From: Bacteroidota bacterium
GTDB taxonomy: Bacteria; Bacteroidota; Bacteroidia; Bacteroidales; GWA2-32-17
DNA: 64,000 nucleotides
Direction of reading: 5' to 3'
NCBI GenBank assembly: GCA_037441645.1
Contig: JBBIRU010000026.1
Location: 13,435 to 77,434 of the forward strand
This document shows, in pieces, positions 38,651 to 63,017 of this stretch. Both the position numbers and the translations under genes were made by a program. Within the stretch, counting starts at the first letter, position 1; each line of letters opens with the position of its first letter. A model generated the notes under the pieces. That model did no database searches, was not told the origin of the DNA, and saw nothing but the letters and a program-made list of their open reading frames with translations.

Positions 38651-38722
38651 TAGGTTGATTATACTACGTCAAAAATAGTTATAAAAACCTATTTATAGTA
38701 GAATACCTTTCCTCTATTTTTA
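38651..38722 (+). promoter_or_regulatory. Tandem TAG-N10-CTA boxes plus -7-like element upstream of the WD40/pseudocaspase gene
   Basis: TAGgttgattataCTA (38651-66), TAGttataaaaacCTA (38676-91), 23 nt, TATTTTTA (38715-22). Confidence 0.7.
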
Positions 38723-38831
38723 TTAATTTTTAATACAGAAGGTCGTAAATGTGCGGCTTATAAGAATTGATTGACAGTAAACACGGAGCAAAATCATTCA
38801 CAGGTAGTTATTTCTCAAGACAATAAATCAA

Positions 38832-40907
38832 ATGAAAGAAGTTTATAGAAAAGTTCTGAAAACAGTAAAAAAAATACTTCGGATATTAATTATTATTATA
38901 TGCCCTGTAACAGTGTTTTCCCAGGTGCCATTAAAATTTGAAAAAGAGCATGACAAAGCAATAATATCAACCATTTTTTCCCCGGACAGTAAAACAATTG
39001 CCTGCCTAACAGCAGACAAAACAATTAAAATCTATAATTCACAATCCGGAGACTTAATAACAACGCTGGATGATAAAGGCGAAGGCAATGTTAGTATGGC
39101 TTATAGTCCCGATTCTAAATTCTTAATCAGTGCATGTTTTGACAAAACGATCAAAATCTGGGATGTGGTAAATGGCAAGCTGGATAGTAAACTTAGCGGA
39201 CATCTCCAGCCGTCGAGAAGTGTTTGCTATAGTTCGGATGGGAAATTTATTGCGAGTGGCGGAGCCGATAATACTCTTAGAATCTGGTATGTGCCCGGTA
39301 AACTCAATTTTAAAACTTTTGAGGGACATAAGCAAAGTATAAGGTCAATTGCTTTCAGCCCCGACGGGCTTTTTATTGCCAGCGCAGGCAACGACTTAAG
39401 ACTTAAAATCTGGAACTTTGTCTCCGGCACTGAAGTTTTTTCAATAAAAGCAGCCGACTATCCCATTGAAACAATAAGTTACAGTCCGGATGGAAAGTAT
39501 ATTGCCACAGCAGGACTGGAAAATAATATAAAAATATGGGATGCTAAAAACGGAACACTTTATAAAACCCTGAAAGGGCATATCAATTGTGTGTATTCTA
39601 TTGCATTCAGCCCTGACGGTAAGTACCTGGCCAGTGGTGGCGACGATAACATCGTAAAAATATGGAATATAGACGCCGGTACATCAGTTAATGACCTGAA
39701 AGGGCATAGCAAAGGTATTCGAACCGTTTCTTTTTCTCCGGACGGTAAGATGCTGGTTACCGGGGGGCTTGATAAACACATGAGAGTTTGGGACATGAAA
39801 TTTCTTAATGTGAATCCGGTTCTTAAACAACAAAAATTTGTTGACAAGTCTGCAAATGGAACCGGTATTTCTTTTGGGAAAACTATATCTGACGTAAACA
39901 CCTCTTTCTCCAGGCAGTATACGGTAACTGTTTGCCTTGATAATAACACATGTACCAATTACAGGCTGTTTCTGAACAAGTCGGTGTATTCAAAAACAAA
40001 TAATCAGACAATCGAATTGGTAAAACCGAAAAGTATTTCTAACACAAAGGACAATAAATTGGCCATAACATATGACATTACTCTTGAAGGCGCAGATAAT
40101 GAAATTCAATTCTATGCTGAAACTTCAGATCACTTGGGATATATAATGTCCAGGCCTTTATATGTTAAGTTCTTTGATATAAGCGATTTTCAAAAGAATG
40201 CACGGTTGCAATCTTTAATTATAAGCCCGAAGAATTATAGCGACCAGAAACTTAATATAGGCTTTGAAATCAATATTAATTTTGAAACAGAAAACACAAA
40301 CAGATTCAAGGACTTATGCCTGAGTCAGCAGGGGAAATTATTTAAATCAGTTTCCCTCCGATGCCCTGATGATAATAAATATTTATCCCGGAAAAGCATT
40401 ATCAGAACTAGCGATTCACTGGCAACTGTATCAAAAAAGCAGGATGTTTTTCTTATCATTATTTCTGGTTTATTTGTTAAAAATTCCGGTAATGAGATTT
40501 TCTTTATCGCTCCTAATTCCAGTTTAAAGGACTTTAAAACTGATCTTGTGGGTATAGAGTCATTTTGCAGTTCAATAAACAAATCACCGGCATTCAGCGG
40601 AATCATAATCGATCCGTCGCGAAAGTTACTTCAATACCCTGACGGGTATTCCCAGGTTGACAGTAAAGAAATATTCGATTATATTACTAAAAGCTTAAGT
40701 ACAAAAAAAGATTGTGCGGTTTTAGTAGTTTCTACCAATGAGTATCTGCAACTTTTTGATCTGCTTTTTAATGGTTTTTATCCCTTTAACGATACCGACA
40801 AAAACGAAATGATTGATTTCAATGAACTAAATAACTTTTTTACACAGTTATACAAAACATATTTTCTTAATAAAGGCAGATTTGTTCCATTATATCTTAC
40901 TTATTGA
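38832..40907 (+). CDS. Exported WD40-repeat protein with C-terminal degenerate caspase-like domain
   Basis: Signal peptide, ~7 GH...FSPDG...D.TIKIW repeats; C-terminal DVFLIIISGLF / IIIDPSR correspond to caspase SGHG / DAC positions. Confidence 0.8.
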   Translation: MKEVYRKVLKTVKKILRILIIIICPVTVFSQVPLKFEKEHDKAIISTIFSPDSKTIACLTADKTIKIYNSQSGDLITTLDDKGEGNVSMAYSPDSKFLISACFDKTIKIWDVVNGKLDSKLSGHLQPSRSVCYSSDGKFIASGGADNTLRIWYVPGKLNFKTFEGHKQSIRSIAFSPDGLFIASAGNDLRLKIWNFVSGTEVFSIKAADYPIETISYSPDGKYIATAGLENNIKIWDAKNGTLYKTLKGHINCVYSIAFSPDGKYLASGGDDNIVKIWNIDAGTSVNDLKGHSKGIRTVSFSPDGKMLVTGGLDKHMRVWDMKFLNVNPVLKQQKFVDKSANGTGISFGKTISDVNTSFSRQYTVTVCLDNNTCTNYRLFLNKSVYSKTNNQTIELVKPKSISNTKDNKLAITYDITLEGADNEIQFYAETSDHLGYIMSRPLYVKFFDISDFQKNARLQSLIISPKNYSDQKLNIGFEININFETENTNRFKDLCLSQQGKLFKSVSLRCPDDNKYLSRKSIIRTSDSLATVSKKQDVFLIIISGLFVKNSGNEIFFIAPNSSLKDFKTDLVGIESFCSSINKSPAFSGIIIDPSRKLLQYPDGYSQVDSKEIFDYITKSLSTKKDCAVLVVSTNEYLQLFDLLFNGFYPFNDTDKNEMIDFNELNNFFTQLYKTYFLNKGRFVPLYLTY

Positions 40908-41031
40908 TATTAACGAACCGAACTTACATGCCATTCAGTTTTTCGAAGAACCTGGCCTCCTTAAATTATAACAACTATTAGTGTAATTCTGGTATAAACA
41001 TTTATGCCTGATCTGTCATTATTAATAGTAA

Positions 41032-41102
41032 TAGGTGAATAGTACTACCTAAATATAGTTGGAAGAACCTATTTTCATTCTTTGCTCTCGGTTATATTTT
41101 TG
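41032..41102 (+). promoter_or_regulatory. Tandem TAG-N10-CTA boxes plus -7 element upstream of the che operon
   Basis: TAGgtgaatagtaCTA (41032-47), TAGttggaagaacCTA (41056-71), 23 nt, TATTTTTG (41095-102). Confidence 0.8.
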
Positions 41103-41157: not shown

Positions 41158-41472
41158 ATGCAAACAGAATTCAATGTTAAAAAATTAAAATCAGGGGATT
41201 GCAAACTCGAAGTAAAAGGAGACCTGGTTATTAAACACAGTATTGATTTTAAGAACCAACTTTCCGGGTGTGTCGGGGGATGTAAGAACCTTGTAATATC
41301 TCTTGAAGAAATTACTGCTATAGATGTTACCGCTATTCAGATGATTCAATCCCTTAGGAACGAATTTAATGGCAGCTCAAAAAATCTCACTGTTATTTCT
41401 CCATCCAATGAAAGTATCCTGATTTCTTTGCGCAATTCAGGATTACTTAAAGTCATAACTAATAATGTATAA
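41158..41472 (+). CDS. STAS-domain protein (anti-sigma antagonist-like)
   Basis: LEVKGDL, LEEITAIDVTAIQM, LRNSGL; first gene of che cluster. Confidence 0.85.
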   Translation: MQTEFNVKKLKSGDCKLEVKGDLVIKHSIDFKNQLSGCVGGCKNLVISLEEITAIDVTAIQMIQSLRNEFNGSSKNLTVISPSNESILISLRNSGLLKVITNNV

Positions 41473-41485
41473 CAGATGTCTTTCA

Positions 41486-41857
41486 ATGCCTAGATTTATT
41501 CTTGTAATAGATGATTCGGAAAGCATCAGGGAACTGGTTGCATTGACTTTGGAATCTGCAGGTTTTAAAGTTAAAAAGGCTGTGGATGGACAGGATGCTC
41601 TTCATTTTCTTTTCGATCACGATATCAGGTTGGTTATAACCGATTTACACATGCCAAATATGGATGGGATCCAATTAATCGGAGAAATTCGGAAAATTGA
41701 CAATCATTTAACCACTCCTGTTCTTCTGCTTACAACAGAATTATCTGCCGCGAAAAAAGAAGAAGCCCGAATGGCTGGTGCCACGGGATGGATTGTGAAA
41801 CCTTTTAACCAGCAAAAATTACTGGAAATAGTCAGAAGACTGATAGGAAATAATTAA
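41486..41857 (+). CDS. cheY: Single-domain response regulator CheY
   Basis: VIDDS, ITDLHMPNMDG, LLTTE, GATGWIVKPF; precedes cheA. Confidence 0.9.
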   Translation: MPRFILVIDDSESIRELVALTLESAGFKVKKAVDGQDALHFLFDHDIRLVITDLHMPNMDGIQLIGEIRKIDNHLTTPVLLLTTELSAAKKEEARMAGATGWIVKPFNQQKLLEIVRRLIGNN

Positions 41858-42037
41858 TAAAAAACAAGATGTATCAAACTGCTGGCAACTTAAACCTGTT
41901 ATTCAAACTGCATTTCATCGGGTATATTAAAATATTCCGGTGCCTGGAACAAATTATACCTGACCGGAAAATATTAACTCCCGGAAATACTGTTCATCTT
42001 ATGGTTTTATAAATAATCTGAGTCAGAGGCTACGACA

Positions 42038-44044
42038 ATGGACAACATGCACGCAATATTTATGGCAGAAGCTCAGGAACTGATTTCAGAACTTGAGAAA
42101 TCACTGCTTATGCTTGACGATGATAAGGAAAACAAGGACGGGATTGCTTCAGTATTTCGTACAATGCATACGTTAAAAGGATCGGCCAGTATGTTTGGCT
42201 TCGAGTCCCTGAGCACATTAACACATAAGATCGAAACAATCTATGATAATATCCGCAATGGAAAGAGAAAACTCACACATAATATCCTGAGCGTAACTCT
42301 CAGAAGTGTTGACCACCTGAAGAAGCTGCTGGAAGATGCTGAACTTACAGATGAATCAACAAAAAGAGAACATGAATTACTTTGTCAGAAAATTGAGGAA
42401 CTTTCGAAAGAGGAAACGGAAACCGTTAACCCCGTACAGTCAGCTGAAAAGGGTAGTCCCGGCAATGAAGCAAGTACCTATTACATTCTTTTCAACCCCA
42501 AAGCAGACATTCTCAAAAACGGAACAAATACCCTGTATCTTTTGGACGATTTACTTGCTATGGGAGAAGGAATTACCCTTCCATTCTTCTGCCAGATGCC
42601 TTCCTTTAAAGACATTATACCCGACACCTCCTATACCGGTTTTGAGACCATTTTATGTACTGATAAATCGCAGGAGCAGATTCGCGAAGTATTTATTTTT
42701 GTAGAAGGAGGGTGTGAGCTGAAAATTAAAAAAATAGGGACCGGGAATCTTCTTAAAATACCTTTAGTAATAGAAAATCTGCAAAGAAAACACAACCTTT
42801 CCTTACAGACCGGAGAAAAGCAGATTTTATCCGTTTTACTTGCATCTTCCAATGTCCAGACACAAGTAACAGCAGCAAAAACAGCCTCCAACGTTCGTGT
42901 TTCATCATTCCGTCTCGATGAACTCATGAATCTTGTGAGCGAACTTGTGACAACCCAGGCAAGTCTCAGCCTTCTCGCAGAAAACTCATCTTTTCCCGAA
43001 CTGACTTCAATTGCCGAAAATATTGAAAAAATTACCCGCAGACTCCGCGATAACGCTTTTACAATGAGTCTGATTCCTATTGAAAGCCTGGTAGTCCGTT
43101 ACCAGAGGCTTGTAAGGGATCTCTCAAGAGAATTGAAAAAAGATGTTGTAGTTCTTACAGAAGGAACTGAAACGGAAATTGAGAAATCTATTATCGAAAG
43201 ACTAACCGATCCACTGTTACATTTGTTACGGAACTCTCTTGATCATGGAATTGAATCTGAGGATGTACGTCTGCGTTTAGGTAAGCCAAAACAGGGTACT
43301 TTGATGCTTAAATCATATTATTCAGGAGCCAATGTAGTTGTCGAAATCAGCGATGATGGTGCCGGGATGGACCCTGAAAAACTACGGAAAACAGCAGAAG
43401 AAAAGGGATTGATAACTCCCAATGCAGTACTGAGCAAAAAAGAACTTCTTAACCTTATTTTTCTTCCCGGATTTTCTACTGCCAGAACAGTAACAGGTAT
43501 TTCAGGCAGGGGCGTGGGCATGGATGTAGTGAAAAGAAAAATTGCCGAAATAAAAGGTGAAGTGGAGGTCGATTCCCAAATCAATAAGGGTACCAAAGTT
43601 ACGATTAAACTACCTCCCAGTCTATCCATCATTGATGGTTTATTGATACAGGTTCACAACACCCGTTTTATTATTCCGTTGTCTGCTGTCGACCAGATTT
43701 TTGGAATTACCTGTCAGCAGGTAAGACGTTCTTTTAACAACGTAATTATTTTGGCCGGCGAAGCTATTCCTTTTTACTCCTTGCGCGAAGAATTCGGTTT
43801 TGAAAACATTCAGAATGATAACGATATTTTGCAGGCAGTAATAGTAAGATATGAAAACAACCGCGTGGCCCTGATTCTGGACAAAGTTATCGGTGAGTAC
43901 CAGGCTGTTCTGAAACCGTTAGGTAAATTATTCCGCCACCAGGAAAGTATCTCCGGTGCATCTATTCTTGGCGATGGCGGTATCGCACTTGTATTGGACA
44001 CAAACAAATTTATTCACTTGTCAACTGTTATAAGAACACAATAA
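42038..44044 (+). CDS. cheA: Chemotaxis histidine kinase CheA
   Basis: Hpt FRTMHTLKG, HLLRNSLDHG, DDGAG, GFSTA..SGRGVGMDVV, C-terminal CheW domain. Confidence 0.97.
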   Translation: MDNMHAIFMAEAQELISELEKSLLMLDDDKENKDGIASVFRTMHTLKGSASMFGFESLSTLTHKIETIYDNIRNGKRKLTHNILSVTLRSVDHLKKLLEDAELTDESTKREHELLCQKIEELSKEETETVNPVQSAEKGSPGNEASTYYILFNPKADILKNGTNTLYLLDDLLAMGEGITLPFFCQMPSFKDIIPDTSYTGFETILCTDKSQEQIREVFIFVEGGCELKIKKIGTGNLLKIPLVIENLQRKHNLSLQTGEKQILSVLLASSNVQTQVTAAKTASNVRVSSFRLDELMNLVSELVTTQASLSLLAENSSFPELTSIAENIEKITRRLRDNAFTMSLIPIESLVVRYQRLVRDLSRELKKDVVVLTEGTETEIEKSIIERLTDPLLHLLRNSLDHGIESEDVRLRLGKPKQGTLMLKSYYSGANVVVEISDDGAGMDPEKLRKTAEEKGLITPNAVLSKKELLNLIFLPGFSTARTVTGISGRGVGMDVVKRKIAEIKGEVEVDSQINKGTKVTIKLPPSLSIIDGLLIQVHNTRFIIPLSAVDQIFGITCQQVRRSFNNVIILAGEAIPFYSLREEFGFENIQNDNDILQAVIVRYENNRVALILDKVIGEYQAVLKPLGKLFRHQESISGASILGDGGIALVLDTNKFIHLSTVIRTQ

Positions 44045-44061
44045 CCTAAAGAAGACTCTAT

Positions 44062-44568
44062 ATGGACAAAGAAATTAAACTAAAGTTGAATTCCTACCTC
44101 TCATTTAAATTAGGTGAGGAAATTTTTGCTGCCAATGTCAGTAAGGTACTGAACATTCTTGAGATGGTAAAAATCACTAAAGTCCCCAAATGCCCGGAAT
44201 ACATGAAAGGAGTGATTAACCTTCGGGGAACAATTTTACCTGTAATCGATACCCGCATAAAACTTGGGATGTCGGCTACAGAATTGACTCCTAATACCTG
44301 TATTCTCGTATTGGATATTGATTTTCAAAAGGATTCGCTGCACATTGGAGGATTGGTCGATTCTGTCCAGGAAGTGTTGGAAATTGAACCGGAACAAATC
44401 CTTTCGCCGCCTAATATTGGAAGTAAATACCAGTCGGAGTTTATATACGGTATGTATAAGTTAAATGAGGAGCAATTTATTATGCTGCTCGATATGGACA
44501 AATTATTCACAACCGAGGACATTCAAGAAATAAGGGAAACTTCTCCTGATGTGTCTGAAACGTTGTAG
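44062..44568 (+). CDS. cheW: Chemotaxis coupling protein CheW
   Basis: ITKVPK.PEYMKGVINLRGTILPVID, GGLVDSV. Confidence 0.96.
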   Translation: MDKEIKLKLNSYLSFKLGEEIFAANVSKVLNILEMVKITKVPKCPEYMKGVINLRGTILPVIDTRIKLGMSATELTPNTCILVLDIDFQKDSLHIGGLVDSVQEVLEIEPEQILSPPNIGSKYQSEFIYGMYKLNEEQFIMLLDMDKLFTTEDIQEIRETSPDVSETL

Positions 44569-44619
44569 TTTGACAAATCATAAAACTAAATAAAATAACA
44601 CAAATTAAATCTTACACAT

Positions 44620-47600
44620 ATGTTAAATAAAATGAAAATCAGGTCAAAGCTTATTTTAAGCTTTCTGTTAATGGCTGCAATGGCCGGAGTTATCGGGGTT
44701 GTAGGTTATATCGGAATGAACTCATCTCGCAATGCGCAAGATGCCCTGGCTACAATTTACCTGCCGTCGCTTGAATATATTACAAATATTCAGCATGCTC
44801 AGACGGATATCAAAGCACAGGAGTGTGGTCTGTTAGATAGTCGTTATTCCACTAAAGATATAAACCACAGGATTGAAAAAAGCCAGAAGCTTTTAAATGA
44901 AATAGAAGTAAATCGTCAAAGATTTGATTCCATTCCTAAAGAAGCCGAAGAATTAGTCTTATGGAAATCATATCTTATAGATTTGGATAATTGGTATAAA
45001 AAGCATGAAACATTTATTCAGTTAGTGAATGAAAGAACTTCACTAATTGAACGTGGCGTAAATATAGACGATAAAAAAGGAACCACATTAAATACTGAAA
45101 TATTTGATTATTACAATACAGATGTAAGGTCTGCATTTGCTCCGTGTGAAGAAAAAAATCAAAAGATTGTTGATATGCAACTCAACAACTCACATACTGC
45201 TGATATAGATGCTGATAATGTTGCAGAAAAAAGTACGATGGTATTAATTATAGTAATTGTTCTGGGTATTATTTTCGCTATGGTTGTCGGAATATGGATA
45301 TCTTTCAATATTAATAAAATTATAAGATCTATAGTAAGTCAGGTAAAAGAGATTGCAGATGCAGCTGTGAATGGAAAACTGGATGTACGTGCTGAAACAG
45401 AAAAGACCAACTTTGAATTCCGCGAAATAACCGTAGGTGTTAATCAAACTCTGGATGCCGTGATTAGTCCGCTGAATATGGCTGCCGATTATGTTGACCG
45501 AATTTCCAAAGGCGATTTGCCACCAAAAATTACAGATAATTACAAAGGCGATTTTAATGAAATAAAGAATAATTTAAATACTGCTATTGATGCAATTAAT
45601 GCCCTGATAAAAGATGTTTTTATGCTTTCCGATGCAACTGTTGAAGGAAAGCTGAATACAAGAGCCGATGCTAACCAGCATCAGGGCGATTATAAGAAGA
45701 TTGTAGAGGGAGTAAACAATACCTTGGATACACTTGTTGGATTCATTGATTATATGCCAACTCCTGCAGCGATTATGGACAGGGACTTTACTGTGTTGTA
45801 TATGAATGAGATCGGGGCTAAACTTGGAGCGAAAACTTCTAAACAGGTTGTTGGTACTAAATGTTACGATTTCTTCAGAACCAGCGATTGTAATACCGAG
45901 AAATGCGCCTGTGCAAGAGCTATGTCCACTAACATGGGTGCCTCCAGCGAAACAGATGCACATCCCAATGGACTTAACCTGGATATCAGCTACTCGGCTA
46001 TTCCGGTAAGAGATAAGCAGGGAAAAGTAATAGGTGCATTTGAAGTGGTTACAGATCAAACAGCTATTAAACAGGCAATGCGTGTTTCAGAGAAAATTGG
46101 GAAGTATCAGACCAAAGAAGCTGAAAAACTTACAGAAAGCCTGGTTAAGTTTGCTAAAGGAGATTTGAACTTTAAATTAGAAACAGCCCCTCCTGATAAT
46201 GACACGGCAACAGCTAAAGCAATGTTCGACGAAATTAACAATGCAGTTAATACATCTGTTGGCGCGGTCAGTGCACTTATTGCTGACGCCAGGATGCTGG
46301 CCAATGCAGCGGTGGAAGGAAAACTTGATACCCGCGCCGATGCTTCAAAACATGATGGCGATTTTGCCAAAATCATTACCGGCGTAAACAACACACTCGA
46401 TGCTGTAATCGGGCCTTTGAACGTTGCTGCAAATTATGTCGATCGTATTTCCAAAGGCGATATTCCTCCCGTCATTACAGAAAACTACAGCGGCGATTTC
46501 AATGAAATCAAAATGAATCTGAATCTGTTGATTAACTCGATGAATGATATTGCTGCCAAAACAAAACTATTTGCCAAAGGAGACCTGAACGTAGAGTTCA
46601 GGATGCGCTCGGAGCAGGATGAGATTATGCAATCGTTACAGGAAATGATTAACGCGACCACCAATATTGTTACAAAACTTGATCTGATTGCAAAAGGCGA
46701 CCTTACCATTCAACTGAAGATGAGATCTGATAAGGATGTTTTATTGCAGTCCATTATGCAGATGGTTAATTCGGTATCCGAAGTTGTAAGCCAGGTACAG
46801 ATTGCTTCCGACAACATTGCAGAAGCTGCCCAGGAAATGAATTCCAATTCACAACAGGTCTCCCAGGGAGCCTCTGAACAGGCATCATCGGCAGAAGAGG
46901 TTTCCTCCTCTATGGAAGAAATGTCTTCAAACATTCAGCAGAATACAGATAACGCGCAACAGACCGAGAATATTGCTATTTCAGCTGCACATGGAATGTC
47001 ACAGGTAGCCTCAAGTTCTGCCGAAAGCCTTAAATCAATTAAGGAAATTGCCAACAAAATTTCCATTATTGGCGACATTGCCTTCCAGACCAATATTCTT
47101 GCACTGAATGCTGCCGTTGAAGCCGCACGTGCCGGTGAACATGGTAAAGGTTTTGCTGTTGTTGCATCCGAAGTCCGGAAACTTGCCGAAAACAGCAAGG
47201 TAGCTGCAGAAGAAATAAACTTACTTTCAAAAACAAGTGTTGAAGTAACGGAAAAAGCAGGTACCCTTATGTCTAAAATTATTCCGGATGTTGAGCGTAC
47301 AGCAAAACTGGTACAGGAAATTACAGCAGCCAGCCTGGAACAAAATTCAGGCGCCAATCAGATTAACAACGCAATAAACCAGTTGAACCAGGTTACGCAG
47401 CAAAACGCAGCTGCTGCAGAAGAGATGGCTACCAGTTCAGAAGAACTCAACGGTCAGGCAGACCAACTCAGGGAACTGGTGTCATTCTTTACGGTAAATA
47501 ACCATGGAGCAAGTGGTAATGTGAAGAAAGTCAAGCCAACTAACAAAACAAAACAGATGTTTAATCCGCAGCATAACATCAATACTTCATCAATCCCGAA

Positions 47601-47664
47601 AAGTGGTGTGCAAATAAACCTGCATCACAACGACAAGAAAGATGCAGACTTTGAGCAATTCTGA
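44620..47664 (+). CDS. Methyl-accepting chemotaxis protein: 2 TM, periplasmic helical sensor, multiple HAMPs, cytoplasmic Cys-rich PAS, signalling domain, C-terminal DFEQF
   Basis: [38 protein letters not shown]; repeated ISKGD.PP.IT.NY.GDFNEIK HAMPs. Confidence 0.96.
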
Positions 47665-47671
47665 TTAATTC

Positions 47672-47708
47672 CCCGGTATTCCCTCCTGCATATGGAGAGA
47701 ATACCGGG
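47672..47708 (+). terminator. Stable hairpin after the MCP gene (terminator or mRNA stabiliser)
   Basis: cccggtattccctcc-tgcata-tggagagaataccggg; no clear U tract. Confidence 0.5.
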
Positions 47709-47832
47709 TTAAGACTGCTTCTGGTACAAAATACAGAGAAAAAGTGTCTTGACCGTTGTTTAAATAATAATATTAGAACAAGTTTAATTGATTTATGGGA
47801 ATTCGTTTTAATTAATTTTAATAAGGCAGATT

Positions 47833-48921
47833 ATGCAGTTGTCACAGTTTTTAGATTTGCTCAGGTATATCCTTTCATTTATTGAAAAAAGCCAGGTTTT
47901 GGCAGAATATTCTGCTGTACTGAATGTTATTAATCAGTTGAAAAAAAAGGCCAGGTCTGAAGTTCAGGTAATGGAAGTGAAAGAAATCCTTAAAAAGCTC
48001 GATTCTTTTCATTCAGACATTGACTCCGAAAATAAAAATGAATTGTTCAGTGCTGCATTAGCCATCATCGATCAGCATGGCACACTCGGCTCCAGGGCAA
48101 TGAATGAGCTGCACAAAGCAACTGCAAAAATGGAATCAGACCTGCAGCCTTTGGTTAAATGTATCGGGAAATTAAGAGACGAAACAGAACAACTCCTGAA
48201 CAGGGTTAACGCAGATATAAGAGGAATGGAACAAATAGTTGCCTTAAAGGCAGAGGTGACTTCATTGCCGGTAACAGATGCTTCCCACTTGTTCAGTATT
48301 GAATTCAGCCGGCAGGCAAACATAGATACCATGGCAGACCTTGAAAAGAATGCAAGAATATGGAACTCTATCCTTCAGGCGTTTATTACAGTGACCCGTT
48401 CCGATTCTGCCGACGTTCAGATTTATTCGATATCTAAACATAGAATTGAAATTCATGCAAACGATCGGGTGATTTCAAGCATTACGAAAGGCCTTACCTC
48501 CATCCTGAACTCATACCATAAAACTCTTGATATTTTAAAGCTGCAATTGGAAATCTATCAGTTGAAGCTTGCCAGGAACAGGGAAATAGATATTCTCCTC
48601 CGGGAAGAAATGAAAGACCTCCTTGAAGTCAACTCGGTAACCGTTGCACATGAGATAACCAATCAATACGAATGGGCCGGCGATCAGGCAGAAGAAGATT
48701 TGTATCTGCTTGTTCAGGTATCTCTTAAACAAGTCTTTGGTTTTTTTGAAAAAGGAGGTAGAATCAATGCGCAAATATCAGGCGAACTGAATGATCTGAA
48801 TATGAAAATAAGCCAGGTGATTACCGAATTAGATAATCTTAAAAGCGCATCGAATATTTCTGAGTTCAAAGAGGATTCTGTTATACAAACAGAAAATCCG
48901 ATTCTTAGTGAAGAACATTAA
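47833..48921 (+). CDS. Hypothetical helical cytoplasmic protein within the che cluster
   Basis: 362 aa ORF, no signal peptide or TM, no recognised motif. Confidence 0.75.
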   Translation: MQLSQFLDLLRYILSFIEKSQVLAEYSAVLNVINQLKKKARSEVQVMEVKEILKKLDSFHSDIDSENKNELFSAALAIIDQHGTLGSRAMNELHKATAKMESDLQPLVKCIGKLRDETEQLLNRVNADIRGMEQIVALKAEVTSLPVTDASHLFSIEFSRQANIDTMADLEKNARIWNSILQAFITVTRSDSADVQIYSISKHRIEIHANDRVISSITKGLTSILNSYHKTLDILKLQLEIYQLKLARNREIDILLREEMKDLLEVNSVTVAHEITNQYEWAGDQAEEDLYLLVQVSLKQVFGFFEKGGRINAQISGELNDLNMKISQVITELDNLKSASNISEFKEDSVIQTENPILSEEH

Positions 48922-49867: not shown

Positions 49868-49882
49868 TGTAAATAATTTTTT

Positions 49883-51347: not shown

Positions 51348-52466
<1,119 letters not shown>

Positions 52467-53150: not shown

Positions 53151-53798
53151 ATGGCAACAGAACTTGACCAGGTGGACTTGGATTTTACTAAGGAGGTAAT
53201 AAACATAGGGCTTGCAAAGTCAGCAGATTCACTTTCGTTTTTTCTTAACGAAAAGGTATACATACATCCGTATGACTTGAAATTCAACTCAAACAATTAT
53301 TTTCCTCTTTCGAAAAAGAAGAGTATTAATAACAGCTACCTTCTCACAACGCATATCAGGGGAGAATTTCAGGGAAAGGCGTATCTTGTTTTCAGCGAAA
53401 AAGAAGTAGATAAATTGTTGCTTAAAAATTTTCCGGCAAGTATCCGGGAAAATCCTGCCGAAAGGACTAATGTTATTAATGATTTTCTGCTTGAAATAGA
53501 CAATATTATCTCTGCTTCGGTAATTACGCAATTTGCTAACTTGCTTAAACGCAACATTTATGGCGACGTTCCGACACTTGACATTATGCCCAATACGGAA
53601 CTGAATGATTTTCTGCGTAAGAACAATCCCGGTGAATTGAAAATATTTTATTTTAATTCCAAATTTGTTACAAAAAATGTTGATATTTCTCCTGAATTTA
53701 TCTGGTTGCTCGATGATCGTTTTTTCAATCAGGTAAATCAATTAATAGGAATTGAAAAAAAAATAGAGCTTTACAGTAAATTAACATCTAACACATAA
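53151..53798 (+). CDS. CheC-like phosphatase
   Basis: Two E-x-x-N motifs (KEVINIG..KSADSLS, LEIDNII). Confidence 0.75.
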   Translation: MATELDQVDLDFTKEVINIGLAKSADSLSFFLNEKVYIHPYDLKFNSNNYFPLSKKKSINNSYLLTTHIRGEFQGKAYLVFSEKEVDKLLLKNFPASIRENPAERTNVINDFLLEIDNIISASVITQFANLLKRNIYGDVPTLDIMPNTELNDFLRKNNPGELKIFYFNSKFVTKNVDISPEFIWLLDDRFFNQVNQLIGIEKKIELYSKLTSNT

Positions 53799-53823
53799 TG
53801 TTCTCACCTTTATAAATAGTTCT

Positions 53824-54795
53824 ATGTTGAATGCACTTGATTATGCCGGGCTGACTGAAGAGAATAATTGCCTGAAAAAGGAAATTGAAAACATGAAAAT
53901 AATGATGAATGAGTTGGAGCAAACCAACTCTAATCTTATTTCAGCAACATGGAGAGAAAGAGAGCTTAAAAAAATACTGACCAATACTCTTTCCGAACTT
54001 GAAAAATCGAAAAGTGTTATTGAAAAACAAAATAAAAAAATCTCTGAAAGCATCAATTATTCTAAGAGAATTCAGGATGTTATTCTGGCCGATGAGAATT
54101 CTGTCAGATCCATACTTCCTCAGTCTTTCATATTATACATTCCAAAAGATATTGTAAGTGGCGATTTTCCATTTTTTTACCAGGATGGAAACGTCTGTCA
54201 CCTTGCGGCAGTTGATTGTACCGGGCATGGCGTTCCGGGTGCCATGCTGTCGCTTATCGGTCACCTGATCCTGAATGATATTCTTTCCAAGGGAGGTAAG
54301 AAAAAAACCTCTGAGGTTCTGTGCCTGATGCATTCTATGATTGTCAAAACATTAAAGCAAAATATTGAAGGTAACGATGCCTCAGACGGGATGGATATTG
54401 CCATGTGTGAAATAAGTCCCGGGGAAAATAAAGTAAGATTTGCAGGCGCTCATCGTCCGTTATACCAGATCCGTAATAATGAATTGCTCGAATACAGCGG
54501 GTCGCGCTTACCTATAGGCGGAACACAATATAAAAAGAAAACAACCTATACAGATTACGAAATTGACGTACAACCCAACGACTTATTCTTAATCTTTTCT
54601 GATGGATTCCAGGACCAGTTTGGAGGCCCCGAAAATGAAAAATATGGTTCGCTTCGACTCCAGAACTACCTGTTCGAAAACAGGCACTTCTCAATAGACG
54701 AATTAAAAAACGGTCTGAGAAATGAGTTTTTAACATGGAAAGGCGACGGAAAACAAATGGATGACATATTATTTATTGGGTTTAAAATACCTTGA
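53824..54795 (+). CDS. Soluble SpoIIE/PP2C Ser/Thr phosphatase (SiaA-like catalytic domain) with coiled-coil N-terminus
   Basis: SGDF, DCTGHGVPGA, DGMD, SDGFQDQFGG, DDI; no TM. Confidence 0.9.
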   Translation: MLNALDYAGLTEENNCLKKEIENMKIMMNELEQTNSNLISATWRERELKKILTNTLSELEKSKSVIEKQNKKISESINYSKRIQDVILADENSVRSILPQSFILYIPKDIVSGDFPFFYQDGNVCHLAAVDCTGHGVPGAMLSLIGHLILNDILSKGGKKKTSEVLCLMHSMIVKTLKQNIEGNDASDGMDIAMCEISPGENKVRFAGAHRPLYQIRNNELLEYSGSRLPIGGTQYKKKTTYTDYEIDVQPNDLFLIFSDGFQDQFGGPENEKYGSLRLQNYLFENRHFSIDELKNGLRNEFLTWKGDGKQMDDILFIGFKIP

Positions 54796-54798
54796 CAT

Positions 54799-55368
54799 AT
54801 GGAAAAAGAAAATATATCTCATATGGAATTTGTACTTCGCACATTTAAAATGATGCAAAGTAACGGTATTAAACTGGTATATGAAGGCGAAATAAACCAG
54901 TCGCTTACAAAAGTGTTGGCTGCCCTCACCGAAAAAAAACTGGAGGATGGCAATGAAGATTTTTTGATTACCAGGACGGTTTACCACGTTATGATTGAGT
55001 GCCTCCAGAACATTTGTAAACATTCGGACAAAAGTCAGGCAGATGCAGGCAACTCAATGAATGATGGAATGTTTATGATTTGTGAAGAACAAAGTAACTA
55101 TTCTGTAACAACAGGGAACGTTGTTACGAGTGAAAATGCTGAAAAAATGAGGGGTATTCTTGATTCAATCAATGCTTTGACAAAAGAAGAGGTAAAAGCA
55201 GCTTATATGAAACAAATGAGGGAGGGGCAGCTTTCTGAAAAGGGTGGAGCCGGATTGGGTTTTCTTGATATTGCCAAAAAGACCGGGAATAAATTCCAAT
55301 ATCATGTAGAGACAATAAACAATGAAAGATGTTTCTTTGTTCTGAAAACTGTAATTTCAAAAATTTAA
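54799..55368 (+). CDS. SiaB-family protein kinase
   Basis: YEGEINQ, IECLQNICKH, TTGN, KGGAGLGFLDIAKK; between the PP2C and SiaC-like genes. Confidence 0.85.
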   Translation: MEKENISHMEFVLRTFKMMQSNGIKLVYEGEINQSLTKVLAALTEKKLEDGNEDFLITRTVYHVMIECLQNICKHSDKSQADAGNSMNDGMFMICEEQSNYSVTTGNVVTSENAEKMRGILDSINALTKEEVKAAYMKQMREGQLSEKGGAGLGFLDIAKKTGNKFQYHVETINNERCFFVLKTVISKI

Positions 55369-55372
55369 TATC

Positions 55373-55747
55373 ATGAACGCACTAATAATTGAAGCAACTG
55401 ATGAAACCCCCCAGATTAACCTGGACCCAATTACTAACCATTTGTTTTTTAGCGGAAAGTCTCTTCCGGAAGACGTCAGAAGTTTTTATAATCCTGTCAT
55501 GGAATGGATCGATGAATTCACTTCTACCCGAAGAGACTCCACTATAGTTGAGTTTAAAATGGATTACTTCAACACCGCATCTTCAAAAATAATTCTTGAT
55601 ATTCTGCTCAAATTAGAAAACATCCATCTCGAAGGAAATGCTTTGACGATAAAGTGGTTATACAGAAGTAAAGACCTTGACATGAAAGAGGCGGGTGATG
55701 AATATGCCGAAATTGTAGAGGTGCCATTCCAGCACATTCCCTATTAA
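55373..55747 (+). CDS. SiaC-family (DUF1987) phosphoprotein
   Basis: TDETPQI, SGKSLPED..FY.P, YFNTASSK, W.Y...D.DM.E.G. Confidence 0.9.
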   Translation: MNALIIEATDETPQINLDPITNHLFFSGKSLPEDVRSFYNPVMEWIDEFTSTRRDSTIVEFKMDYFNTASSKIILDILLKLENIHLEGNALTIKWLYRSKDLDMKEAGDEYAEIVEVPFQHIPY

Positions 55748-58358: not shown

Positions 58359-58805
58359 CTAACGCGATTGTTTCTCGGAAGTCATGATTACTGCACACCC
58401 TTCTTTTCCATCTAAGAAGTAATATGTCAGATAGTAAATGCCTGATGCCCTGCATACAAACTCAAACCCGCTAAGTCCCTTTTTTGTAGAAGGATCATAG
58501 GTGCTTCCTATCAGAGTATTTGTCGAAGACTGATATAACTGAAAAATCAATTGCCCGTCATAATCGGAAGCGTTACAAACCACAATTTTATATTTTGTAT
58601 CCTGGTTAAGTACAAGAACATTTTTACCCATAAGAGGAGCATCTTTCTTACTCTTCTTAAAACGAACCTGGTAATGTTTCAGAAATTTGTAATCTCCGAT
58701 TTCAGGGTAACAAACTTCAATTAATTGATCATCACATTGCCCTTTTACGATTTTTACGGTAAAAACCAGGGCAAAAATCAAAATGACTGTGAGAAAATAT
58801 TTCAT
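58359..58805 (-). CDS. Small exported Cys-containing protein, third gene of the ABC operon
   Basis: Signal peptide then QCDDQLIEVC; 148 aa, five Cys in mature part. Confidence 0.8.
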   Translation of the reverse strand: MKYFLTVILIFALVFTVKIVKGQCDDQLIEVCYPEIGDYKFLKHYQVRFKKSKKDAPLMGKNVLVLNQDTKYKIVVCNASDYDGQLIFQLYQSSTNTLIGSTYDPSTKKGLSGFEFVCRASGIYYLTYYFLDGKEGCAVIMTSEKQSR

Positions 58806-58828
58806 GGTACAATATTTTTAATAAATCT

Positions 58829-59728
58829 TTAATTAATAATTTTATTCCTGATGGAAGCTATTACATTGCCAATACTCTTGAATATGGTTTCATCTATGTT
58901 TATGGTACTGGTACTGTTATCGATTATTACCATCTTGCCGTCAACTTTCTTCATGGTAGGTTCAACATAGTTGTATGTAATGATAACTTTATCGAATTCC
59001 TTTTTCAGGTTTTCTGAATCCTTTAATAATTCTGCAAAATCGGGGTCATTTTTAAAAGCCCCCAATAAAATTATAATATTATCGAGAACTACCTTTTGCT
59101 CACCGACCCTGTCGTAAATCTTTTGCTTTTTTTCAACGGCATCAATGCTGGTCGCCAGGTAAAGATTTTCAATCCATGTTCCGTATGCAATCAGTACGGC
59201 AATATTACTTCGCTTTTCATCTATCAGGTAATGAGTCATTCTATCGAAACTGGAATTCGTTATAAACAGGATTGAATCGACATTTTTCTTGTTTTCCGAA
59301 AGACGGTTCAATGTTTCTAAATTAAAAAACTGACCAACTTTCAGATCATTTGCCAGGTCGTTCACATTTTTAAGGTAAGTCAATGTAGAAATGGTACGTT
59401 CATAAATATTCATGTGAACAAGGTCAGATCCGTAAGTTCCTAAGTTCAGGGCTTTCTTGAGGTTAGTATTGTACTTGCTTACATTAGAGGAAGGAACCAG
59501 CAAATCCGAATTATAAACTACTCCCGATTGTTGCAGCAGTTCTGATAATTGCAACGGATTTGGAACAACGGTAATGAGTTGCCCGATGAGTTCATCATCA
59601 ACCATTTCATCCTTACTGGCAATGGAGTCATTAAGTAAATCCGTAGCATTATTCCTGGGTGCATTACCACAACCCATGACAAAGAATAAAAGGGCTAAAC
59701 AGATAGGATTCAAAATTATTTTTTTCAT
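58829..59728 (-). CDS. Helical lipoprotein of unknown function
   Basis: Lipobox VMG|C; KALNLGTYGSDL, GTWIENLY. Confidence 0.82.
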   Translation of the reverse strand: MKKIILNPICLALLFFVMGCGNAPRNNATDLLNDSIASKDEMVDDELIGQLITVVPNPLQLSELLQQSGVVYNSDLLVPSSNVSKYNTNLKKALNLGTYGSDLVHMNIYERTISTLTYLKNVNDLANDLKVGQFFNLETLNRLSENKKNVDSILFITNSSFDRMTHYLIDEKRSNIAVLIAYGTWIENLYLATSIDAVEKKQKIYDRVGEQKVVLDNIIILLGAFKNDPDFAELLKDSENLKKEFDKVIITYNYVEPTMKKVDGKMVIIDNSTSTINIDETIFKSIGNVIASIRNKIIN

Positions 59729-59732
59729 GCTT

Positions 59733-62700
59733 TTAATTAGTTAAATTATTAACTTTGGGTATCTTATTCTTATACATAGAAAAAGTATTACTTATTCGCA
59801 TTTTAATAAATGCTGTAAAAGTAAAAACTCTTTTAATGAGTTCAAAATACAGAGCAACATACATTACCACGGCAAAAAACCATAAAATAAGAATGTTAAA
59901 CCAGAAAGTAGGAATGCTTTGCCCGATAAAAGATTTTGCAGGAGCAAGAAAATGAGTCCTGAAATTGAAGAAAGAGGGGTGCTGAGGATCAAGATATATC
60001 GGATCAACCTTCTGTACATAATGGTTTCCTATTCTTACCAGTTGATTACTTAAATAAGTATTCCTGGCAAAGCTTCCCAGGTACTTGTTATAATATCCGT
60101 CATAAAACTGCTGGTACTGCTTTGTTTTTTCAGCAGTTCTTTGCATTTCTGAAAGGATATGGTCTTTTTCCTCGTTGACCGTTTTAAACTGGTTTTTATA
60201 ATGTTCCTGTAAACGATCAATATACGAAAGCGTACTGTCTGCTGTCTCCATGGTAAAACTTCCCCGTGAGATCGGCTCAATACCTGTAAAAGGAATGCCT
60301 GGTACGATTGCCGGTTCCCTGGAAAGTTCATTGTACAATAACTCAAGGTTATCCTTTGATATCGTCTTTTCCGACCTGTACTTTTCTACTATTCCTTTAA
60401 TTTCGGGTAGCAGATAAACGTTATGATAATTTATAGTACTTTCAAGTTTCTCGTAATTATAAAACAGTCTTTCGTAATCGTTATTCACAAACTGGTTTAC
60501 CACAAGCGCTTCAAAAGCCCAGCGCGAAGGCATTAATTCTGCTAAAACCGGGACATTTTCACTACCGCCGCCAATTAACCGGTTAATTTTATCGAAGCTG
60601 AACATGGCCCCTGATAATACCATCTGCGGAATGATCAGAAAAGGTATCAGTATATAAATGGTAACGGCAGAATCAAAAGCAGAAGAAATGTTCAGTCCCA
60701 GGATATTTGCAAATGCAGCCATGGAGAAAAAAATACACCAGTATTCAAAGTACATCCCTTTAATCTCTAAAACATAATTGCCTATAATGACAAAAAGAAA
60801 TGATTGAATAGCCGAAAGAAGAAACAATATCCCTATTTTAGAAAACAGGTAACTACTCCGGCTCAGGTTCAGAAATCTTTCCCGTTTAAGAATTTTTCTG
60901 TCCTTAAAGATTTCCTCGGCGCTGACCATTAAGCCAAGGAAAATAGCCACAATGGTACACATAAACATATAAGGAATAATGTTGTCGTTATCCCTGTATA
61001 CATATGAATCAGAAGCCGGATCGCTGATGTAACGAAGTATAAAGGCGAGTATGTATCCGATCAGTGGCGCTTCTAAAAGGCTGATGATAAGATACTGTTT
61101 GTTAGCTAGCTTGGAGAATAAATCCCGCGCAAAATATGTTTTAAGCTGCTGAAACCAGGAAGGCATTTTATGAGTCTCGGGCAAACCGGAAAACCTGGTT
61201 TTGTTTATATTCCTGTTATTCCTGTAATCTTCGTATCGTAAAAACCATTCCCCGGGCGTAACCTTACGGTTATCTGTATATTTTCCGTAATCATCGAGAA
61301 TTTTTGCTTCCAGTATATTAAAAATACTTTCAGGGTTTACATTTCCGCAAGAGGAACATTCCCCGATATCGCTGTTAATCTGGTTGTCATGCCTTTTAAA
61401 ATACATCACTGCTTCAACAGGATTACCATTATATACAGGATATCCGCCAACATCAATAATGATAATGCTATCGAACATCTTGAAAATATTTGAGGAGGGC
61501 TGGTGAATGACAGTAAATATAAGCTTGCCCTTTATTGTCAATTCACTCAATAACTCCATAACATTTTCAGAATCCCGTGAAGACAGGCCCGAAGTTGGTT
61601 CGTCCATAAACAAAATGGCCGGTTCACGTATCAGTTCAAGACCAATATTTAAACGTTTTCTCTGGCCTCCACTTATTTTTTTACTTAACGGACTCCCTAC
61701 TTTTAAATCCCTGATATGACTCAATCCCAAACTGTTTAACACTCCAAGCACCTGTTTGTTAATCTGTGAATGGGAAAGATTCCTGAACACAAGTTTGGCA
61801 TTATAGTATAAGTTCTGATAAACCGTCAGTTCCTCAATAAGAAGGTCGTCCTGGGGAACATAGCCAATAATGCCCTTAAGTTTATCTCCATCCTTATGAA
61901 GGTTAATGCCATTAATCAGTACTTCTCCTTTTGAGGGGCTTTCCGACCCGCAGAGCACATTCAGTAATGTTGTTTTGCCGGCGCCGCTGGAACCCATTAT
62001 TCCGACCAGTTTACCGGATTGCTCGTACAGGTTTATGTCGATCAGGCCATTATTTCCATTTGGAAAGCAAAAGGAAAGGTTATTTACCTCAAAAGAAACC
62101 CGGTTTATGGAAGAATCCTGCATGAATTGCTGAACAACGTCGGTATATAAGCCGGGCTTGCCTTTTGGGGGTTTTACAATACTCCCGCTGGCAAAAATAT
62201 ATATCCGCTTATCATTAATTGGCAATCCATTCATCAGAACCTCATCCACTCCCACATACCGGATAAAATACAGATCAACACCCGGTACCCTGAGAATTTG
62301 AATGTGTCCGTTTAAGCTGTTGGATTCTATATATTTACATGCCGGAGAAACACCTGTCCTGTCATTCTTTATTATCATAATATCAGAACAGGAGATAGCA
62401 GATACCACATCTTCCGTAACAAACTCTGTTATTGAATCAAATTCGCTCTTGCTGATATTAAATGTTTCGGCTACCGTATCAATAATAGCCATTCGCTGCG
62501 ACGTGAAATTCTTATCAGAATTAACCATTTCGAGCAAACGTACCAGAACAACAACTTTCTGTTTCTGTGAAAGAGTTTTGTTAATCTTCTTGCAAATACC
62601 TAAAGTTTTTACAGAGTCCTTTACAGAAGTTAGTTGTACCTCATCGCCTTCGGTCTTTTTTCTCTGATTGTCGCCAATAAAACTATCAAAAAGTCTTAAG

Positions 62701-62840
62701 TATTCTTTAACAGAACTGTCGTTTAGCTGGAGTTTTAAAAACATGTGAACATAGTCCCTTTCATTGGAAGAAAGACCTATGTCCTGCTTTGCAATTATAG
62801 CAAAGAGTTGCATTAGTGCTTTTAATATTTTCTCACTCAT
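59733..62840 (-). CDS. Single-chain ABCG-type transporter with TerB-like N-terminus, NBD, ABC-2 membrane domain and large extracytoplasmic loop
   Basis: GSSGAGKTT, YVPQDD, ISGGQRKR, FMDEPTSGL, VIHQPS; NBD precedes TMs; N-terminal ALMQLFAIIA helical domain. Confidence 0.9.
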   Translation of the reverse strand: MSEKILKALMQLFAIIAKQDIGLSSNERDYVHMFLKLQLNDSSVKEYLRLFDSFIGDNQRKKTEGDEVQLTSVKDSVKTLGICKKINKTLSQKQKVVVLVRLLEMVNSDKNFTSQRMAIIDTVAETFNISKSEFDSITEFVTEDVVSAISCSDIMIIKNDRTGVSPACKYIESNSLNGHIQILRVPGVDLYFIRYVGVDEVLMNGLPINDKRIYIFASGSIVKPPKGKPGLYTDVVQQFMQDSSINRVSFEVNNLSFCFPNGNNGLIDINLYEQSGKLVGIMGSSGAGKTTLLNVLCGSESPSKGEVLINGINLHKDGDKLKGIIGYVPQDDLLIEELTVYQNLYYNAKLVFRNLSHSQINKQVLGVLNSLGLSHIRDLKVGSPLSKKISGGQRKRLNIGLELIREPAILFMDEPTSGLSSRDSENVMELLSELTIKGKLIFTVIHQPSSNIFKMFDSIIIIDVGGYPVYNGNPVEAVMYFKRHDNQINSDIGECSSCGNVNPESIFNILEAKILDDYGKYTDNRKVTPGEWFLRYEDYRNNRNINKTRFSGLPETHKMPSWFQQLKTYFARDLFSKLANKQYLIISLLEAPLIGYILAFILRYISDPASDSYVYRDNDNIIPYMFMCTIVAIFLGLMVSAEEIFKDRKILKRERFLNLSRSSYLFSKIGILFLLSAIQSFLFVIIGNYVLEIKGMYFEYWCIFFSMAAFANILGLNISSAFDSAVTIYILIPFLIIPQMVLSGAMFSFDKINRLIGGGSENVPVLAELMPSRWAFEALVVNQFVNNDYERLFYNYEKLESTINYHNVYLLPEIKGIVEKYRSEKTISKDNLELLYNELSREPAIVPGIPFTGIEPISRGSFTMETADSTLSYIDRLQEHYKNQFKTVNEEKDHILSEMQRTAEKTKQYQQFYDGYYNKYLGSFARNTYLSNQLVRIGNHYVQKVDPIYLDPQHPSFFNFRTHFLAPAKSFIGQSIPTFWFNILILWFFAVVMYVALYFELIKRVFTFTAFIKMRISNTFSMYKNKIPKVNNLTN

Positions 62841-62948
62841 CTGTCAGCTCAGCTAACCATGTTTGCTATTAATTAATAGCTCAACTTATTTTCTTATCTT
62901 AAAATATCTTCAGAAAAGTATAAAACATACCAATTTATACTTAACTGA

Positions 62949-63017
62949 CAAAACTACTTAGCCGGCCGGAAGAAAAAAATAGGAATTTTCAACTATTCTA
63001 ATAGTACAATTGCCCTA
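62949..63017 (-). promoter_or_regulatory. Tandem TAG-N10-CTA boxes plus -7 element upstream of the ABC operon
   Basis: Minus strand: TAGggcaattgtaCTA (63017-02), TAGttgaaaattcCTA (62995-80), 23 nt, TAGTTTTG (62956-49). Confidence 0.8.

Follow-up and report, generated by a model that had tools for sequence, protein, structure and literature searches.

The window described here is a stretch of 64,000 nucleotides (nt) from contig JBBIRU010000026.1 of the Bacteroidota bacterium assembly GCA_037441645.1 (positions 13,435 to 77,434, order Bacteroidales). It carries a cluster of signaling genes in which one shared cis-code appears to serve four promoters. Each of these promoters has two tandem boxes of 16 base pairs (bp), both of the form TAG-N10-CTA, placed at a constant distance from a Bacteroidota-type -7 element, and the genes behind the four boxed promoters number 19 in total. 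That the boxes are protein-binding sites co-regulating the four units can be said with high confidence. That a REC-GerE response regulator encoded in the same cluster binds them as two dimers and activates transcription is probable.

One layout for four promoters

What do the four promoters have in common? Read gene-ward and taken directly from the letters, each of the sites S1 to S4 (Table 1) begins with a distal box, TAGG-N7-TACTA, followed by a gap of 6 to 9 nt, a proximal box, TAG-N9-CCTA, and the trinucleotide TTT. From the CCTA that closes the proximal box to a -7 element of the form TAnnTTT(G/A) there are exactly 23 nt at all four sites. An initial annotation of this DNA had already described distal boxes reading TAGG...ACTA, proximal boxes ending in CCTA before TTT, a spacing of 22 to 25 bp from start to start, and exactly 23 nt to TAnnTTTG with one variant. 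Direct reading bears out the box letters at all four sites, and the distances between box starts, measured from S1 to S4, are 25, 24, 24, and 22 nt. Sites S2, S3, and S4 match TAnnTTTG, and S1, with TATTTTTA, is the variant.

Table 1. Promoter elements and genes of the cluster (positions in the window; distal and proximal are given relative to the gene served; aa, amino acids)
Feature	Position	Strand	Details
S1 boxes	38651..38691	+	distal 38651-38666 TAGGTTGATTATACTA, gap 9 nt, proximal 38676-38691 TAGTTATAAAAACCTA; upstream of WD40/caspase-like gene
S1 core promoter	38692..38722	+	TTTA 38692-38695 at -33 position, spacer 19 nt, -7 element TATTTTTA 38715-38722
S2 boxes	41032..41071	+	distal 41032-41047, gap 8 nt, proximal 41056-41071; upstream of STAS-che operon
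S2 core promoter	41072..41102	+	TTTT, spacer 19 nt, -7 element TATTTTTG 41095-41102
S3 boxes	52549..52588	+	distal 52549-52564, gap 8 nt, proximal 52573-52588; upstream of REC-CheC-SiaABC-like operon
S3 core promoter	52589..52619	+	TTTC, spacer 19 nt, -7 element TATTTTTG 52612-52619
S4 boxes	62980..63017	-	distal 63017-63002, gap 6 nt, proximal 62995-62980; upstream of TerB-ABC operon
S4 core promoter	62949..62979	-	TTTT 62979-62976, spacer 19 nt, -7 element TAGTTTTG 62956-62949
Unit 1	38832..40907	+	signal peptide, WD40 propeller, caspase-like C-terminal half
Unit 2, ten genes	41158..52466	+	STAS, REC, CheA, CheW, MCP, unknown 362 aa (u362), CheR, soluble histidine-kinase core, CheD, CheB
Unit 3, five genes	52678..55747	+	REC, CheC-like, PP2C phosphatase (SiaA-like), SiaB-family kinase, SiaC-family protein
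Unit 4, three genes	58359..62840	-	TerB-ABC-ABC2 fusion 1035 aa, lipoprotein 299 aa (u299), exported 148-aa protein (u148)
Response regulator, 216 aa	35182..35832	-	REC + GerE (NarL/FixJ family); PF00072 110 bits, PF00196 71 bits
Sensor kinase, 853 aa	35843..38404	-	membrane N-terminus, four PAS domains, HisKA_3, HATPase_c

How often would such a pair arise by chance? On both strands, the genome of the window (98 contigs, 4,863,568 bases, 36% G+C) contains 189 single TAG-N10-CTA sites and exactly four tandem sites with a gap of 4 to 12 nt, all of which are S1 to S4. From the density of the real single sites, about 0.07 tandems would be expected. The initial annotation had suggested comparing the frequency of the pattern in shuffled DNA, and there it is clearly not as common: six simulated genomes of matched dinucleotide composition yielded 0, 1, 0, 0, 0, and 0 tandems, that is, one over all six versus four in the real genome. 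Each simulated genome held 681 to 773 single sites, 3.6 to 4.1 times the real count. The real genome is therefore about fourfold poorer in TAG-N10-CTA than the simulations, which makes its cluster of four tandems more striking. A weight-matrix scan of the whole genome with variable gaps scored S1 to S4 at 45 to 50 bits and the next distinct locus at 18 bits, so there is no wider regulon and the box code is private to the cluster.

Conservation and rarity of the element

Across a set of 41 relatives, the strict pattern is found in the window's own genome, in a genome from another genus of the same family (G009), and once in a genome from another family (G029). It occurs in none of the seven same-genus genomes. 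Contig C40 of G009 shares synteny with the window over the interval between the PP2C and regulator genes, both included, and the promoters of its STAS-che and REC-CheC operons show the boxes, the TTT, the 23 nt, and a -7 element reading TACTTTTG or TAAATTTG. The G009 counterpart of S1, the WD40 promoter, consists of TAGGTTGAATATACTA, 9 nt, TAGTCATATTAATCTA, TTT, and 23 nt to TATCTTTG; the strict pattern missed it because the box ends in TCTA. Orthologous loci had been named as a check on the proposed code, and in G009 they keep boxes, TTT, 23 nt, and -7 element at all three visible promoters; the fourth falls beyond a contig end.

An anchored comparison of the three promoter pairs (S1, S2, and S3) shows where the similarity between the two genomes resides. 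Identical positions number 43 of 48 in the distal boxes, 41 of 48 in the proximal boxes, 10 of 12 in TTTn, and 19 of 24 in the -7 element. The corresponding figures are 17/25 for the gap between the boxes, 29/57 for the 19-nt spacer, 73/240 for the 80 nt upstream, and 80/180 for the 60 nt downstream. The length of the gap is nonetheless the same in both genomes at each promoter (9, 8, and 8 nt). The boxes are islands of conservation amid randomized flanks. With the tandem sites unique in their genome, fixed in placement, and conserved as islands in G009, the idea of one promoter code shared by four units is supported.

How far does the element extend beyond these relatives? A search of 185,579 species genomes with the strict 19-base pattern, leaving out the -7 element, returned 13 matches in 11 stretches. 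Two of these lie on one 28,060-bp contig labelled as a Bacteroidetes metagenome-assembled genome; they are the same sites as those on C40 of G009 and have TAnnTTT at 23 nt. None of the other 11 matches, at nine loci in unrelated taxa, has TAnnTTT at that distance, and most are perfect hairpins. In a metagenome collection the 19-base pattern gave 27 matches in 26 unrelated loci, none with the element at 23 nt. The fixed distance is thus present at 7/7 true sites (four in the window's genome and three in G009) versus 0/38 look-alikes. Among 401 sampled genomes of the order, related sites were found in the window's genome and G029 alone, the matches in five other genomes being chance or unrelated repeats. 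Since the strict pattern misses diverged sites, such as S1 in G009, this rarity is established for the near-exact grammar alone.

The core promoter and the 23-nt distance

The main sigma factor of Bacteroidota reads elements at -33 and -7, not at -35 and -10. Is the 23-nt distance a rule of its own, or does it follow from this architecture? Promoter grammar was computed from 1731 upstream regions of crude gene calls in the window's genome. TAnnTTTG occurs there 771 times in sense orientation versus 323 times in antisense, the sense copies lying mostly 20 to 40 nt ahead of the start codon. Where TTTG precedes it, the commonest spacers are 20 nt, with 37 cases, and 19 nt, with 25, other spacers having roughly 2 to 15 cases each. 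For sigma-A(Bfr) promoters, the grammar given in PMC7366714 is TAnnTTTG at -7 and TTTG at about -33.

At all seven sites in the two genomes, the 23 nt open with TTTA, TTTT, or TTTC, which leaves 19 nt. A TTTn at -33 plus the usual 19-nt spacer therefore explains the distance and puts the proximal box directly against the -33 position. The "exactly 23 nt" of the initial annotation holds as a distance; as a new rule it dissolves into the standard spacing of this genome. The -7 element itself is an exact TAnnTTTG at three of the four sites in the window, S1 being the fourth, and matches at 3/3 sites in G009. The fourth letter at -33 is never G (0/7 sites). This absence is suggestive of activator dependence, and weakly so, because TTTG stands at a 19- to 20-nt spacer ahead of just 62 of the 771 TAnnTTTG elements.

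Symmetry within and between the boxes

Half-site statistics were pooled over the 14 boxes of the seven sites. Every half-site starts with TAG, so that TAG...CTA is invariant in 14/14 boxes, and the two classes of half-site are distinct: the outer ones read TAGG in 13 of 14 cases, the inner ones TAGT in 12 of 14. Within each box, the dyad covers 3 to 6 of 8 positions, three of which come from TAG/CTA. Symmetry between the boxes is stronger, the distal box being the reverse complement of the proximal box at 9 to 13 of 16 positions. The whole element is a quasi-palindrome of 38 to 41 bp around an A/T-rich gap of variable length.

Could a palindrome of this kind be something other than a regulatory site, such as a weak hairpin or terminator, a remnant of a mobile element, or a recombination site? 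There is a very small chance that it is. The boxes are partly complementary, with four T residues appended the elements have folding energies of -6.2 to -10.4 kcal/mol, and each of them runs into T residues in the DNA; look-alikes elsewhere are nearly all perfect hairpins, and a dispersed repeat flanks the cluster. However, pairing between the boxes is confined to the conserved ends, and complementarity at S3 drops from 13 of 16 positions in the window's genome to 9 in G009. With no continuous stem, and with changes between the two genomes that are not compensatory, an intrinsic terminator or conserved hairpin was rejected. Furthermore, no same-strand gene precedes S1, the dispersed repeat carries no boxes, and a non-regulatory element would leave the placement 23 nt from the -7 element, with its sharp division between true sites and look-alikes, unexplained.

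A candidate regulator and how it might act

Which protein reads the boxes? Judging from the sequence, the NarL-type regulator at 35182-35832 is most likely to be the binder. It is the best candidate on four grounds. (i) Pfam and NCBIfam, with which the cluster's proteins were classified, found no DNA-binding domain among them besides its GerE domain. (ii) G009 encodes an orthologue, 73% identical, located at the corresponding place and transcribed away from the WD40 gene, with the same recognition helix: this helix, KTVAIHRTNIMKK in the window, reads K/N-TVAIHRTNIMKK in both orthologues and differs in the five full-length paralogues of the window's genome and in the hybrid protein of G029 described below. 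(iii) The phospho-acceptor set, read from the sequence, is intact (D11, D12, D57, T85, and K107). (iv) The geometry of the sites is that of BvgA promoters. Among 18 genomes of the family, orthologues of the regulator (E <= 1e-55) are present in the window's genome and G009 alone. With 164 bits against the NCBIfam NarL model, whose cut-off is 250, the protein is not a NarL orthologue. As for its presumptive partner, the HisKA_3 domain (PF07730) of the adjacent sensor kinase is a marginal match, at 25.0 bits versus a cut-off of 24, with the H-box REIHDG.

We infer the following course of events. The PAS/HisKA_3 kinase would phosphorylate the adjacent REC-GerE regulator, two dimers of which would bind head to head on the two 16-bp boxes, their centers 22 to 25 bp apart. 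The proximal dimer would then lie directly against the -33 position of a sigma-A(Bfr)-type promoter (TTTH in place of TTTG, 19 nt, TAnnTTTG) and help RNA polymerase start transcription. In this way the four units, with their 19 genes, would be turned on together: unit 1 for the exported WD40/caspase-like protein, unit 2 for a complete Che-type pathway, unit 3 for the SiaABC-like partner switch, and unit 4 for a TerB-ABC exporter and its two exported partners.

Tandem response-regulator sites abutting a promoter are textbook. In Escherichia coli, NarL sites have a 7-2-7 arrangement, that is, a 16-bp inverted pair of 7-nt half-sites starting with TA and bound by a GerE-type dimer. The boxes here likewise span 16 bp and have inverted ends that start with TA; the sequence of the half-sites is different. 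For BvgA of Bordetella, another member of the NarL/FixJ family, PMC7250471 describes head-to-head dimers 22 bp apart at Pfha-type promoters, the most proximal abutting -35, and a primary (best) site reading TAAGAAATTTCCTA. Like those promoters, the four in the window have tandem boxes with inverted TAG...CTA ends, about two helical turns apart, and a proximal site, here a predicted one, that abuts -35/-33. The boxes also share the TA-G...CCTA ends of the BvgA primary site. There are four differences. (i) There are two 16-bp boxes here and three to six 14-bp sites for BvgA. (ii) The spacing here is 22 to 25 bp, that of BvgA a strict 22 bp. (iii) Outer (TAGG) and inner (TAGT) half-sites differ systematically here. 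(iv) The core promoter here is of the Bacteroidota -33/-7 type.

Several points weigh against the proposed activation by the adjacent regulator. The kinase-regulator operon was not itself found to have a boxed promoter. The co-occurrence of regulator and sites is partly trivial, since a single gene cluster contains them both. Beyond TAG/CTA the boxes show weak internal dyad symmetry, and the center-to-center spacing varies over 22 to 25 bp, unlike the strict 22 bp of BvgA, so that the two dimers would not always be on the same face of the helix. The missing G at -33 adds little, as so few TAnnTTTG elements of this genome have TTTG there. Finally, the site in G029 adjoins a gene for a hybrid kinase-REC-GerE protein, whose recognition helix differs, and an M1 peptidase gene; it neither confirms the link between regulator and boxes nor fits it cleanly. 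With its orientation and -7 element ambiguous as well, this site was set aside as support. Autoregulation of the kinase-regulator operon through the boxes was also considered and rejected: the -7-like elements facing that operon lie only in or against S1 and are absent in G009.

Might the boxes be regulatory and yet be bound by some other protein? Such a protein could come from a gene elsewhere in the genome, or it could be a product of the cluster whose DNA-binding fold goes unrecognized, perhaps under the output of the Che pathway or the partner switch. A STAS protein, a SiaB-type kinase, and a PP2C phosphatase are among the cluster's products, and modules of that type frequently govern transcription factors; u362 is without a recognized fold or function; the link between the GerE regulator and the boxes is indirect; and G029 has a similar site with no orthologue of the regulator, its best match being 38% identical. 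Against this, no second DNA-binding domain was found in the cluster by Pfam or NCBIfam, and of the unknown proteins two (u299 and u148) are exported and the third, u362, is of coiled-coil type. For a regulator from another part of the genome there would be no further target, as the sites occur nowhere else in the genome, and the cluster looks laterally mobile, which favors a regulator that travels with it. All told, a different binder seems unlikely.

What if the adjacent regulator does bind, and acts as a repressor or in a dual role? The -7 element is the dominant promoter element in the phylum and is near consensus at three of the four sites, and the genome as a whole has few consensus -33 elements, so these promoters might be active without help. 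A minus-strand TATTTTTG also lies inside the S1 element. Against this, at 7/7 sites the boxes are wholly upstream of -33, clear of both the -7 element and the start region, their placement matches activation of the BvgA type, and the minus-strand -7-like element of S1 is not conserved in G009. Repression or a dual role is accordingly a distinctly improbable mode of action, and activation by the adjacent regulator remains the reading that we prefer.

The genes behind the boxes

Unit 1 consists of a single gene. A protein language model assigns the C-terminal half of its product to caspases (score 0.95, 10/10 best matches), and the same half has no match to the Pfam caspase model. This fits the label "WD40/pseudocaspase" given in the initial annotation, the caspase-like part being a lead from language-model features. 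WD40 proteins are not usually exported. This one begins with a signal-peptide-like segment, and both the propeller and the caspase-like half may be exported.

Unit 2, which opens with the STAS gene (start at 41158), encodes the Che-type proteins. Pfam results for the cluster's proteins revealed no flagellar genes linked to these che genes within the cluster. Its coiled-coil member u362, in which Pfam and NCBIfam recognize no fold or function, is confined to two of the 41 relatives, the window's genome and G009. Two known systems offer points of comparison for a NarL-type regulator in the company of che genes. DegU of Bacillus subtilis, a NarL family member, binds inverted-repeat-like sequences in the regulatory region of the fla/che operon and controls it positively, according to PMC2245950. 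DegU is a global regulator that acts at fla/che in unphosphorylated form; the regulon here is private to one cluster, in which no flagellar genes accompany the che genes. In Myxococcus xanthus, Che3 and CrdS/CrdA form a Che-type pathway wired to a two-component regulator that controls gene expression and not motility, as described in PMC3147164. There the Che pathway has the NtrC-like CrdA as its output, whereas the NarL-type regulator proposed here would stand upstream of the Che genes.

Unit 3 contains, in a row, a PP2C phosphatase, a SiaB-family kinase (161 bits versus a cut-off of 85), and a SiaC-family protein (126 bits versus 24.5), like the SiaABCD system of Pseudomonas aeruginosa. Unlike that system, the module comes after a REC gene and a CheC-like gene, and no SiaD-type diguanylate cyclase or GGDEF domain appears in the Pfam results for the cluster's proteins. 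Unit 4 is transcribed in the opposite direction, and a terminator-like hairpin lies beyond it (58078-58063, - strand side). Its TerB-ABC-ABC2 fusion has two full-length paralogues in the same genome (contig C23, 41569-44613, and contig C42, 37114-40152; 47% and 44% identical), and the family is multi-copy across the order.

Where does the regulon end? A second WD40 gene (55770-57605, - strand) comes after the terminator-like hairpin and has its own canonical promoter, TTTG-N20-TATCTTTG, which has no boxes and places the gene outside the regulon. The initial annotation had tied the transporter and WD40 genes to chemosensing; this is supported for the unit 1 gene and the TerB-ABC operon and does not extend to the second WD40 gene. 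A terminator scan found none between the unit 1 WD40 gene and STAS, nor between CheB and REC, so read-through into STAS or REC is possible. The same scan did not call a hairpin and T-run after the regulator gene that is visible by eye.

The sensor kinase differs in length between the two genomes, with 1336 aa in G009 versus 853 aa in the window's genome. Just upstream of its start and out of frame with it, an open reading frame (ORF) of 64 aa (38391-38585, - strand) encodes the C-terminal end of a PAS domain (…HITENKRMEETL). From its frame and the longer kinase of G009, this ORF looks like a relic of a longer sensor region.

A search of the cluster for defense-system families gave just generic WD40 and ABC-ATPase matches. 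A literature search, covering texts without their supplementary files, turned up neither this motif nor any che-SiaABC cluster described for Bacteroidota.

Signs of lateral mobility

Between the window's genome and G009, 19 proteins of the cluster (a comparison that left out STAS) are 34 to 89% identical, with a median of 79% and at least 72% in 14 of them. Three background proteins, a small number for the purpose, are 69, 52, and 60% identical in the same pair of genomes; between the window's genome and a same-genus genome they are 84, 72, and 73% identical. None of the seven same-genus genomes searched has the cluster, and in G009 different DNA lies beyond the regulator. By these figures the cluster seems more alike than the genomes that carry it, which fits lateral spread of the whole unit. 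A moving unit needs its own regulator and sites, and this favors the adjacent regulator as the binder.

The ends of the cluster offer less. A repeat of about 300 bp flanks it in direct orientation (33810-34130 and 63130-63433; 320 bp, 85.6% identical), the left copy being partly tandem-duplicated. Over a dozen further contigs of the genome match it, and, being dispersed in this way, it was rejected as specific evidence for the ends of an island. Just past the cluster on the right, a tRNA gene (63594-63667, - strand) separates the repeat from a Lon protease gene; this may be an integration hotspot. In the same-genus genomes the flanking Lon and Mrp genes are on different contigs, and comparison with an empty site was uninformative.

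A bolder proposal may be offered as a tentative one, with the odds against it. The cluster could be a self-contained, laterally mobile signaling island of about 29 kb with a private cis-code, in which the two-component system gates a Che-type pathway, a cyclase-less partner switch, an exported WD40/pseudocaspase, and a TerB-ABC exporter. The gap of each promoter (9, 8, 8, and 6 nt) would set the threshold of its unit, and the pathway's own kinases, CheA and the soluble kinase core, might act back on the regulator. If true, chemosensory modules would be wired here in a way that is new for Bacteroidota.

What the regulon offers

Overall, this is a clean but ordinary kind of local regulon, of a well-known system type, and it changes no general principle. 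What makes it interesting is the unusual combination of genes that it joins and its value for work on activation at Bacteroidota promoters. For an uncultured subsurface lineage of the phylum, it provides a precisely delimited regulon of 19 genes behind four promoters, with one candidate regulator and defined bases. To our knowledge, few activator-dependent promoters have been dissected in Bacteroidota. A natural set of four promoters with one box grammar and differing gaps, three of which are kept in a second genome, is material for asking how a GerE-type activator contacts the polymerase of this phylum. Co-regulation also links the WD40/caspase-like protein, the TerB-ABC exporter, and u362 to the Che-type pathway, which is a lead to their function.

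Further observations in related and look-alike loci

The che operon of G009 (C40, 5441-8480) has three genes more than that of the window, encoding an MCP of 681 aa, a CheW-like protein of 166 aa, and a cysteine-rich protein of 100 aa. In G029, positions 3020-3550 of contig C221 hold two similar short units, each made up of a tiny ORF and a strong terminator hairpin. They lie between the hybrid kinase-REC-GerE gene and a TPR/M1 peptidase gene, and the box pair precedes the second unit.

Two groups of pattern matches have an identity of their own. Four contigs (L043, L054, L069, and L074, one labelled Aminicenantes) share a near-identical element of about 70 nt, TAGGAA…TAGTCCCAATTTCCTA…TATTATCA; this is a conserved element in its own right that matches the pattern by chance and is unrelated to the boxes. 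In G369, a genome of the same order, 11 copies of a 43-bp perfect-hairpin repeat, TAGGTTTCGACTACTA…TAGTAGTCGAAACCTA, are spread over several contigs (loci L018 and L021 to L024) and look REP-like.

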